From: a virus
Strand: one strand, 5' to 3'
DNA length: 64,000 nucleotides
Virus record (IMG/VR): IMGVR_UViG_3300030419_007436
Location: 96,001-160,000 of that record
Positions 36,501 to 38,044 of the stretch are shown piece after piece. Each line of letters starts with the position of its first letter. Position 1 is the first letter of the stretch. The notes under the pieces are model-generated. The model was not told the origin of the DNA and did not search any database. It saw only the letters and a program-made list of their open reading frames with translations. The position numbers and the translations under genes were made by a program.

Positions 36501-36710
36501 TTATGCCTCTTTTTTTAATTCATATATACGCGGTGGACTTTCAGAATATGATGCAGTTACATAAAACTGGTATCTACTATTTACCACCTTCTGTGTACCC
36601 ACGCTTATGTTTTTGCACTCACAGTGTACAGTCTCGCTATCTTCATGTATGTCTTGTTTCCTAAAGACTGAGTTGCATTCGAGACATTCTATGAGCAAAT
36701 AATTTTCCAT
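36501..36710 (-). CDS. Small Zn-binding hypothetical protein
   Basis: CLEC...CEC. Confidence 0.65.
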   Translation of the reverse strand: MENYLLIECLECNSVFRKQDIHEDSETVHCECKNISVGTQKVVNSRYQFYVTASYSESPPRIYELKKEA

Positions 36711-37402
36711 GTGTCCTTATAACCAGATACATTATATACTGTGTGTCCAGAGTCTGTCAAGGCTTTTGCTAAAGAAAAATCATTACCGCCTGGAAGTGTT
36801 CGATCTCCAAAGAAAAAATAGTTTCCCTTTGGTATGTTTTTTAAAACTTGTGATTTATCCCATCCTTGAGGATATATATCGATGCTGATTTCACCGCCAA
36901 TGGCCGCCTCAAGTTCCTCAAAGTTCTCATTAATCTCTCTAGCATATTTAAGACGTTCATTTTTTTCTTGATCATATTCATAATATGCATTGCGTGCAGC
37001 GTGCGATGCGTTTCTTCCCACAACTGAAAAATTAATCATTCCGATGCGTCGCTCGATATGATTTCCAGTCCTCAAGGCATATTCCGACTGATTTAAGCAC
37101 TCCTCCAAATAGCACAACAAGGCTTCCGAAGGTTCGAACACTCTACAATTAATGTTATGTCCTCCAACATGAAAGGTGTTACCCATGCAACCAAAAACAC
37201 CACTAACACTTTGCAAAATATCCTGGGGTATTTGTTCTTCTAATTTTTCATAATCACTTCCAGAGACAAAATAAACTTTCTTATCAACAATCCAGTCTTT
37301 AAAAAAAGAATAAAATTCTTCTGTCATTTTTTGCCTAGGGGGAGTCAATGTGCCGTCCACATCAAATAAATATATATCGTCAACTAGTTCCACAATAACC
37401 AC
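36689..37402 (-). CDS. Eukaryote-type phosphomannomutase (HAD-IIB)
   Basis: FDVDGTLT, SGSD, IERRIGMINFSVVGRNA, GGEISID, FFGDRTLPGGND. Confidence 0.9.
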   Translation of the reverse strand: MVIVELVDDIYLFDVDGTLTPPRQKMTEEFYSFFKDWIVDKKVYFVSGSDYEKLEEQIPQDILQSVSGVFGCMGNTFHVGGHNINCRVFEPSEALLCYLEECLNQSEYALRTGNHIERRIGMINFSVVGRNASHAARNAYYEYDQEKNERLKYAREINENFEELEAAIGGEISIDIYPQGWDKSQVLKNIPKGNYFFFGDRTLPGGNDFSLAKALTDSGHTVYNVSGYKDTWKIICS

Positions 37403-37506
37403 CCTACAGCGCAGCCAACCGTGAGGCCAAAAAGAAGCAACGAAATAAACTGCCCCACATAATATCGCCGCTCTGCTTTTTCAATTTCATCAAATAAATC
37501 TCTCAT
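37384..37506 (-). CDS. 40-aa membrane peptide (MRDLFDEIEKAERRYYVGQFISLLLFGLTVGCAVGWLLWN); not in ORF track
   Basis: AGGAG SD; C-terminal TM. Confidence 0.65.
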   Translation of the reverse strand: MRDLFDEIEKAERRYYVGQFISLLLFGLTVGCAVGWLLWN

Positions 37507-37522
37507 CACTTCTCCTTTTTAG

Positions 37523-37712
37523 AACCAGGGGGCGGAATTGAACCACCTACCTCCGCTTCGTCCATAGATCCACTCTGCATAAGTGTTTCCGCCTTAGACC
37601 CCATCGCCACTAATTCCGGCAGGGGCGATTTTCCCCGGTTGCTCCGGTGTGTGGATCTTCGGTTTCCTACTTTATATAAACGGGCGGCGCTCTTCCGGTG
37701 AGCTACCCTGGT
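37523..37712 (-). ncRNA. tRNA-like RNA with ~118-nt structured insertion replacing the anticodon loop
   Basis: ACCAGGG/CCCTGGT acceptor, GCTC/GAGC D stem, CCGC/GCGG stem, GGTGG-TTCAATT-CCGCC T arm; 127 nt between stem halves. Confidence 0.8.
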
Positions 37713-37717
37713 ATATG

Positions 37718-37801
37718 TAGCTGAAGAGGGATTCGAACCCTCACACCCGTTACGGATAACGGATTTTAAGTCCGTTGTGTCTACCATTCCACCATTCAGC
37801 C
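37718..37801 (-). tRNA. tRNA-Leu(TAA)
   Basis: ACGGA-CTTAAAA-TCCGT anticodon arm, long variable arm, GGTTCGAATCC. Confidence 0.95.
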
Positions 37802-37807
37802 AAGTTT

Positions 37808-38044
37808 TTAATAATCATTTTCGTGCTTCATTTTTCTATAGCCAACTACATCCATAGCGAATGGATCAACATCTGATGAGCGGCGATTTCCCCGAAGCTT
37901 TTGTTCCGCTGCCTCGCGCTCTAAAGCTTTTGAGGCACGTTGGACAACGCTTTCGAGCACGCTAATACCAGGATCGATTTTAGTGCCCATTCTGCAATAG
38001 TAATCAACCAAATCAATCAATATTTCTTTTGTTTCGTCGTTCAT
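37808..38044 (-). CDS. Hypothetical protein (78 aa)
   Basis: AGGAG SD; lies between tRNAs. Confidence 0.7.
   Translation of the reverse strand: MNDETKEILIDLVDYYCRMGTKIDPGISVLESVVQRASKALEREAAEQKLRGNRRSSDVDPFAMDVVGYRKMKHENDY

Follow-up and report, generated by a model that had tools for sequence, protein, structure and literature searches.

Locus and Architecture of the Element

The window, a stretch of 64,000 nucleotides taken from a 190,629-bp IMG/VR virus record, carries on its minus strand a tRNA-Leu(UAA) gene that is followed after 5 nt by a second tRNA-shaped gene, referred to here as the element. The element is present once according to a search of the whole record, and its RNA would run from a 5' end at 37712 to a 3' end at 37523/37524. 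It consists of a full tRNA frame in which approximately 120 nt are inserted between loop positions 32 and 33 (Table 1). The position relative to tRNA-Leu is as the original prediction had placed it, and so are the 7-bp acceptor stem (ACCAGGG/CCCUGGU), the D arm (GCUC/GAGC), the variable loop AGGUA and the T arm (GGUGG-UUCAAUU-CCGCC). The frame has U8 and A9, both Gs of the D loop, a T loop of UUCAAUU and U as the discriminator, and CCA is not encoded. The CCGC/GCGG stem that had been described occupies five positions, CCGCC/AGCGG, and is made up of those 4 bp plus one mismatch, C31.A39; the count of 127 nt between the halves of the 4-bp stem is correct.

Default ARAGORN and Rfam 15, the latter at gathering scores and then at E up to 10, make no call on the element, a gene that is overlooked entirely by standard tools. 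With introns permitted, the output of ARAGORN is a forced and unconvincing tRNA-His(AUG): its intron would be 99 nt long, its stem is mismatched and its variable region is very long. This register was rejected because the relatives do not support it. A 93-aa open reading frame at 37506-37787 passes through tRNA-Leu and was therefore taken as spurious. The single-sequence fold of the window copy is no better than that of shuffled sequences (z -1.15), and the case made below thus rests on comparison with relatives.

Table 1. Parts of the element and neighbouring genes in the window, listed in the direction of transcription of the element.
Feature	Position	Strand	Remarks
Recurrent neighbouring gene, upstream	37808..38044	-	
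tRNA-Leu(UAA), directly upstream	37717..37801	-	called by ARAGORN and Rfam; its 3' trailer serves as the element's 5-nt leader
tRNA 5' half	37682..37712	-	acceptor 5' strand 37712-37706; D arm 37703-37689; anticodon-stem 5' strand CCGCC 37687-37683; C32 at 37682
10-nt insertion GUUUAUAUAA, 5' edge of the domain	37672..37681	-	window copy only; absent from 19/19 other full-length members (alignments A1, A4)
Invariant A and H1 5' strand GUAGG	37666..37671	-	AGYAGGA invariant in family; pairs with UCURY; U-A to C-G covariation in 3 members
Rod domain	37590..37665	-	P2 ACC/GGC; P2a AUCC/GGGGU; Pb CAC/GUG; Pc CCGG/CCGG; bulge AGCAAC; Pd CGGGG-AAAAUCG-CCCCUG
Junction strand GAAAC	37585..37589	-	invariant in alignments A1, A2, A4
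Pe hairpin CACU-UAUGCAG-AGUG	37571..37585	-	5/5 Pe pairs covary in family; window copy without the conserved loop (alignment A4)
GA linker, H1 3' strand UCUAU (37568-37564), invariant G (37563)	37563..37570	-	pairing with GUAGG supported by covariation
Anticodon-loop remnant GACGA (G34 A35 C36 G37 A38)	37558..37562	-	reads valine anticodon GAC; no U33; ACGA invariant in family
tRNA 3' half	37523..37557	-	anticodon-stem 3' strand AGCGG; variable loop AGGUA; T arm; acceptor 3' strand CCCUGGU; discriminator U 37523
Recurrent neighbouring gene, downstream	37384..37509	-	
Phosphomannomutase, eukaryotic type	36689..37402	-	Pfam PMM, E 5e-34

Relatives in Marine Phages

Relatives of the element amount to 20 distinct full-length and 2 partial members, all of them from uncultured marine phage or metagenome contigs. 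The first two distant homologues came from loci fetched through a neighbouring flap-nuclease gene, and patterns drawn from shared motifs then recovered further members from IMG/VR, from JGI/TARA metagenomes and from one MAG contig. Two members used as blastn queries against 50,697 GenBank phage records gave no match. In a pattern search with the insert alone the domain was never seen outside this tRNA frame, the remaining matches looking like chance, and no insert-free allele was found in IMG/VR. Since the literature searched yielded no description of such genes, the family of approximately 20 is regarded as previously undescribed. One member, L056, lies within a cluster of five tRNA genes on MAG contig DQKQ01000235.1 (10.4 kb); that this short contig was binned into a Flavobacteriales MAG may hint at the host group, unless a phage contig was mis-binned.

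The original prediction had proposed a covariance model built from homologs as a check. Such a model, R1, was made from nine relatives with the window copy left out, and it scores the family at 104-225 bits, compared with approximately 45 bits for ordinary tRNAs. The window copy is recognized at E 1e-27 but has the lowest score of any full-length member (104 vs 124-225 bits). Within group A the insert is 92-97.5% identical, as against 81-93% for the tRNA halves, and by this measure it is the insert that is the most constrained part of the RNA.

Structure of the Inserted Domain

In the model-fitted alignment of 19 members, which leans towards model R1, 92.4% of cells are standard-paired and both-side changes are found in 36 of 51 pairs. 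When the partners were slid by 1-3 columns pairing dropped to 37-49%, and the observed values were reached by no shuffle. RNAalifold, run independently on the same alignment, recovered the acceptor, D, anticodon, H1, Pc, Pd, Pe and T helices.

The insert opens with an invariant A and the 5' strand of H1 (GYAGG/UCURY), a helix that closes a three-way junction; the rod, the strand GAAAC, the Pe hairpin and GGA follow in that order, and the insert ends with the 3' strand of H1 and an invariant G. In the family the rod branch is built of P2, P2a, a 3' bulge with UGAC, Pb, Pc, a 5' bulge ACAAACA and the Pd hairpin, which has a GAUC-containing loop, and in groups B and C and the L056 group the rod has one extra hairpin. 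The second branch is the Pe hairpin with the loop GGGUUUUGA. The sequence GGAUCU is near-invariant, being GGAACU in two members, and the G that comes next is invariant. Below H1 a fixed internal loop, C-A opposite G-U-N-A-C-G-A, joins the anticodon stem to H1, and a kink-turn-like reading of its C-A / G-A part is possible. The rod helices form in constrained folds of all members, with both-side changes in each helix, and the helices of the tRNA 5' half likewise show compensatory changes across 19 members. Paired substitutions preserve all helices of tRNA frame and insert alike, and the RNA, with its inserted domain of about 110-150 nt, is conserved and under selection for its structure.

The comparison alters the fold that had been proposed from the window copy alone. 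The 8-bp helix AGAUCCAC/GUGGAUCU can form, and the minimum free energy structure of the window copy uses it, but it is unconserved in relatives. The CCGG-AGCAA-CCGG hairpin and the other small hairpins are not the conserved ones, even though the CCGG hairpin is formable in the window. An internal GGCGG could indeed pair with CCGCC in the window copy; this pairing is window-specific, however, and relatives have GGUG, GGUU or similar at the place.

Candidate long-range contacts were also inspected. A GAUC-GAUC loop contact was rejected, given that L052 loses the loop GAUC yet keeps GGAUCU and that L054 changes both without complementarity. Pairing of GUUA in the 3' bulge with the UGAC rod bulge was inconsistent across groups C and D and was dropped. 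Between the A-rich bulge (AAAC) and the Pe loop (GUUU) the A and U counts shift together in one clade (3/4 to 2/3), and because this is one event only, the pairing is put forward as a candidate.

An ordinary tRNA gene that was hit by a MITE-like element or by a random insertion would carry a functionless insert, and the 8-bp inverted repeat (AGATCCAC/GTGGATCT) that the window insert shows would speak for such an origin. This inverted repeat is unconserved in relatives, the insert occurs once in the 190-kb genome and never outside the tRNA frame, and it covaries across approximately 20 divergent members. The comparative data already contradict a mobile or random insertion, an explanation that we find scarcely credible. 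The original prediction was to be given up if a known Rfam family or intron class matched or if covariation was absent; no such match was obtained, and covariation lies far above the controls.

Origin from tRNA-Val

As encoded, the element is called as tRNA (RF00005) by neither ARAGORN nor Rfam. After in silico deletion of the insert, ARAGORN calls a tRNA-Val (UAC, CAC or GAC) in 16/16 members tested, the window copy being tRNA-Val(GAC), and four other members give UAC when they are read the same way. The anticodons of the 20 members are UAC (15), CAC (4) and, in the window copy, GAC (1). The loop that follows the insert has U33 in most members and continues with N34, A35, C36, G37 and A38. 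The blastn hits of the joined L031 body in cultured phages are mainly annotated tRNA-Val genes (6 of 9), and the tRNA-Val(UAC) of Rhodococcus phage Francesca has a loop that differs only at A37. These resemblances indicate that the family arose from a tRNA-Val(UAC) gene.

The body of the RNA nevertheless departs, on sequence comparison, from that of decoding tRNAs at G37, U33 and pair 50-64. Position 37 is G in every member and A in 103/103 ordinary viral tRNA-Val(UAC) genes, the latter collected with a pattern for this type of body. U33 is missing in 5/20 members (G in the window copy, L038 and L044; C in L010 and L056), compared with 0/52 distinct ordinary tRNAs of the member loci. The T-stem pair 50-64 is unpaired in 9/19 members, again compared with 0/52 ordinary tRNAs, and several members have an extra nucleotide there. 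The two members of group D, both without U33, differ from one another by many compensatory changes and each have a strong promoter of their own; since they covary without U33, selection acts despite the non-canonical loop.

In E. coli, the identity set of valyl-tRNA synthetase (ValRS) consists of A35, C36, A73 and G45. Among the relatives A35, C36 and G45 are found in all members and A73 in 15/19. No second tRNA-Val occurs among the 38 ordinary tRNAs of 21 member loci, and the neighbouring tRNAs mostly read A-ending codons, a set that a tRNA-Val(UAC) would complete.

Transcription Context of the Element and its Relatives

A promoter-like site in which at least 10 of 12 positions are matched lies just upstream of seven members. 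Eight members are located a few nucleotides after a tRNA, which is tRNA-Leu in seven (the window copy included) and tRNA-Lys in one, and UAU precedes nucleotide 1 in 17/19 members. A 13-nt leader, CAGTTCTTTAAAA, lying between the -10 box and nucleotide 1, is common to the members that have a promoter of their own (L031:8700-8741; L010:6105-6145; L046, upstream of 7264 on the minus strand). This leader is kept across two divergent groups and may therefore form part of a promoter-proximal signal; it may alternatively belong to the precursor.

Metatranscriptomes from two runs in two studies contain 171- and 190-nt contigs of relatives, in which the insert runs unbroken into the 3' tRNA half and no joint is seen; being contigs, they may derive from DNA carry-over or from precursor (one extends 22 nt beyond the 3' end), and the parts they leave uncovered carry no meaning.

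Known RNA Classes and the Possibility of Splicing

The group I intron model for the catalytic core (RF00028, P3-P9) finds no match in nine members. Position -1, where U-1.G would be expected to form in P1, is C (also U or G), and no segment of the insert pairs with the end of the 5' exon. The two junctions form one internal loop (2 nt vs 6-7 nt) at a single level below H1, a geometry that differs from BHB, where 4 bp separate two 3-nt bulges on opposite strands, and the splicing endonuclease PF01974 is absent from the phage. The view that the element is neither a group I intron nor a BHB substrate is thus upheld. It is not a classical tmRNA either, as had been stated: C3-G70 is present and G3-U70 therefore is not, C3-G70 and a full D stem are found in 19/19 members, and ARAGORN calls no tmRNA at the element. 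Elsewhere in the same genome, outside the window, ARAGORN reports a candidate tmRNA of 434 nt (C1:63661-64094, minus strand) with the tag peptide VAIKKVLKSAGRLNYIRTI, which is possibly a false positive.

The Rfam models for hammerhead, HDV-like, twister, pistol and hatchet ribozymes gave no matches. Hand mapping onto group I, hammerhead and HDV-like folds was abandoned, as the topologies do not fit; in the case of the hammerhead core the junction strands A / GAAAC / GGA fit in no permutation.

Several known RNAs share one or another feature with the element. The interruptions known from the anticodon loops of bacterial tRNAs are group I introns, one type of which has C at -1 (bioRxiv 10.1101/2020.01.27.920355). 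Like the element, they place a conserved structured RNA with a terminal invariant G in the anticodon loop of a bacterial-type tRNA gene. The insert of the element is approximately half their size, sits at 32/33, lacks the P3/P7 pseudoknot topology and would leave a product with G37 and often without U33. In Lak megaphages, Devoto et al (2019, PMC6784885) described tRNA genes with 'enigmatic' introns, conserved anticodon-loop inserts that belong to no known intron class, whose mechanism is unexplained and whose splicing is undemonstrated. Those megaphages infect gut Prevotella, their introns lie in different tRNAs and have different sequences, and no homology to the element is seen.

Like the element, the species 1 and 2 RNAs of T4 (rnaC and rnaD) are encoded in a phage tRNA cluster and have tRNA-like ends; they are stable non-tRNA RNAs processed with the tRNAs, and rnaC ends in a T arm plus an acceptor-like stem. 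At 119 and 139 nt, they differ from the element in having no full cloverleaf with an anticodon-loop remnant, and no similarity is apparent by eye. YrlA, which also occurs in phages, joins a tRNA mimic to a second structured module. Its topology is reversed, however, for YrlA ends in a Ro-binding stem and its acceptor is closed; the Y RNA model (RF02553) scores 17-25 bits against a cut-off of 69, at the tRNA-Leu/element boundary, and no Ro60/TROVE gene is found in the phage. In turnip yellow mosaic virus a valine-accepting tRNA-like structure with a pseudoknotted acceptor forms the 3' terminus of the genome, that of a plant RNA virus. On the reading favoured below, the element would resemble it as a viral RNA that is no decoding tRNA yet retains a valine anticodon-like element and an acceptor end on which tRNA enzymes act, but the pseudoknotted acceptor sets it apart and there is no homology. 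A further tRNA-shaped gene of 88 nt was encountered in an unrelated viral contig (L065:3989-4076, plus strand), with a GUAG...CUAC hairpin replacing the anticodon loop; the ARAGORN call is tRNA-??? with an anticodon of 2 nt, and this gene may represent another, separate look-alike of a tRNA.

A tRNA-Val gene with a new compact intron, excised between C32 and U33 by its own catalysis or by host enzymes that read its conserved fold, with joining of the exons, would yield a spliced tRNA-Val predicted at 72-76 nt, with an L031-type junction of CCGCCC joined to UUACGAGG. Removal of the segment from the invariant A to the invariant G restores a 7-nt loop, U33, a valine anticodon and a purine at 37 in 15/20 members, and each of the 16 members examined by ARAGORN becomes a tRNA-Val in this way. 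The anticodon varies at the wobble base only, as in a working tRNA-Val, and the spliced product would fill the Val slot of a phage tRNA set in loci that have no other tRNA-Val. The last nucleotide of the insert, an invariant G, is comparable to omega-G of group I introns, both junctions face each other at the foot of H1, and the strongly conserved unpaired motifs suit a ribozyme no less than a binding domain. Precedents exist in the Lak phage introns and in group I introns with C at -1. An intron of this type would have no relation to group I, group II or BHB introns and would have the terminal G and the facing junctions at the H1 foot in its active site, an arrangement that we consider doubtful.

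Against splicing, none of the nine members gives a match to a group I or ribozyme model (E up to 10 for the window copy, up to 5 for the eight others). The insert, at 108-146 nt, is well below the size of known group I tRNA introns, which are about 200 nt and more, and it has neither a P1 pairing to the 5' exon nor P3/P7 topology nor BHB geometry. RtcB, splicing endonuclease, Rnl1 and Rnl2 are undetected in the phage, although the Rnl1 control itself matched nowhere. The spliced product would carry G37, which is seen in 0/103 ordinary viral tRNA-Val, would lack U33 in 5/20 members and would often have a defective T stem. Neither an insert-free allele in IMG/VR nor a spliced contig among the metatranscriptome contigs was found. 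We therefore regard excision of the insert as unlikely; if it did take place, it would add a new class to the splicing mechanisms of bacteria and their viruses.

A Probable Non-Decoding RNA in the tRNA-Val Frame

The explanation that we favour, with a probability of approximately 55%, is that the element encodes a tRNA-Val-derived, non-decoding structured RNA that is processed by RNase P. According to this model, a tRNA-Val(UAC) gene acquired a structured domain of approximately 110-150 nt, which became fixed between nucleotides 32 and 33 of its anticodon loop. The gene would be transcribed with neighbouring tRNAs, as its location 5 nt after tRNA-Leu suggests for the window copy, or from its own sigma-70-type promoter. 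RNase P, 3' trimming and CCA-adding enzymes would accept the RNA as a tRNA, because the acceptor stem, the D/T elbow and the U at -1 are intact. The RNA would then persist whole, as a stable molecule of approximately 190-220 nt that reads no codons, its bulky domain presumably excluding it from the ribosomal decoding site.

Because A35, C36 and G45 are always kept and A73 mostly is, the RNA probably still engages a tRNA-Val-specific partner. The most likely putative partner is ValRS, in which case the RNA could be charged; an alternative candidate is a host factor aimed at the anticodon loop of tRNA-Val. Among the three readings that the original prediction had offered, an ncRNA released by RNase P and a decoy are thus favoured by the evidence, and a new intron type less so.

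Phage tRNA clusters are usually annotated as plain codon supplements, and here a tRNA-Val frame carries a folded RNA domain. If the RNA is indeed a mimic, it would offer the phage a previously unknown route onto valyl-tRNA synthetase or onto host factors that target tRNA anticodon loops, and the engineered "tRNA scaffold" would then have a counterpart in nature. With approximately 20 aligned sequences and a covariation-supported structure, the family is ready for synthesis and testing.

Divergence of the Window Copy

By model score and alignment, the window copy is the most divergent member of the family, and it could be a decaying one, still transcribed and trimmed inside the tRNA operon after the function of the family had been lost. 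Its insert is 73% identical to that of L031, beside a tRNA 5' half that is 97% identical, and the score of 104 bits sets it below the 124-225 bits of the others. In the rod the family UGAC bulge has been lost and ACAAACA has become AGCAAC, and the Pe loop GGGUUUUGA is gone as well. The 10 extra nucleotides at the junction, the C31.A39 mismatch, the absence of U33 and the discriminator U point in the same direction.

Decay of this copy is nevertheless quite unlikely in our view. The window copy still forms H1, P2a, Pb, Pc, Pd and Pe, with a compensatory A-U to G-C change in Pc relative to L031, and it keeps AGUAGGA, GAAAC, GGAUCU and ACGA. With all its helices kept, the copy is either a working variant that has diverged or a member on which selection has relaxed. 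An identical copy is present on a second contig, and the window variant is therefore not an assembly error; L004 carries an identical neighbouring gene.

Neighbouring Protein Genes

No universal protein neighbour was found among the members. A pair of genes without a Pfam match, located on either side of the element and its tRNA-Leu in the window (Table 1), recurs beside the element in L036, L042, L044, L046 and L047. One of the recurrent neighbours, seen in 5 members only, is a protein of 40-46 aa with one membrane helix (M.DL..E.R.AE.RY...LWG), and the other is a protein of 75-86 aa that starts with MNDE.KEILIDL.DYY. The phosphomannomutase gene lies approximately 120 nt downstream of the element in the window. 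L009 has a homologue at the corresponding site, and another, 41% identical, is found in the unrelated viral contig L003, where the gene upstream of it (L003:2560-2990, plus strand) resembles, by eye only, a T4 RegA-type translational repressor.
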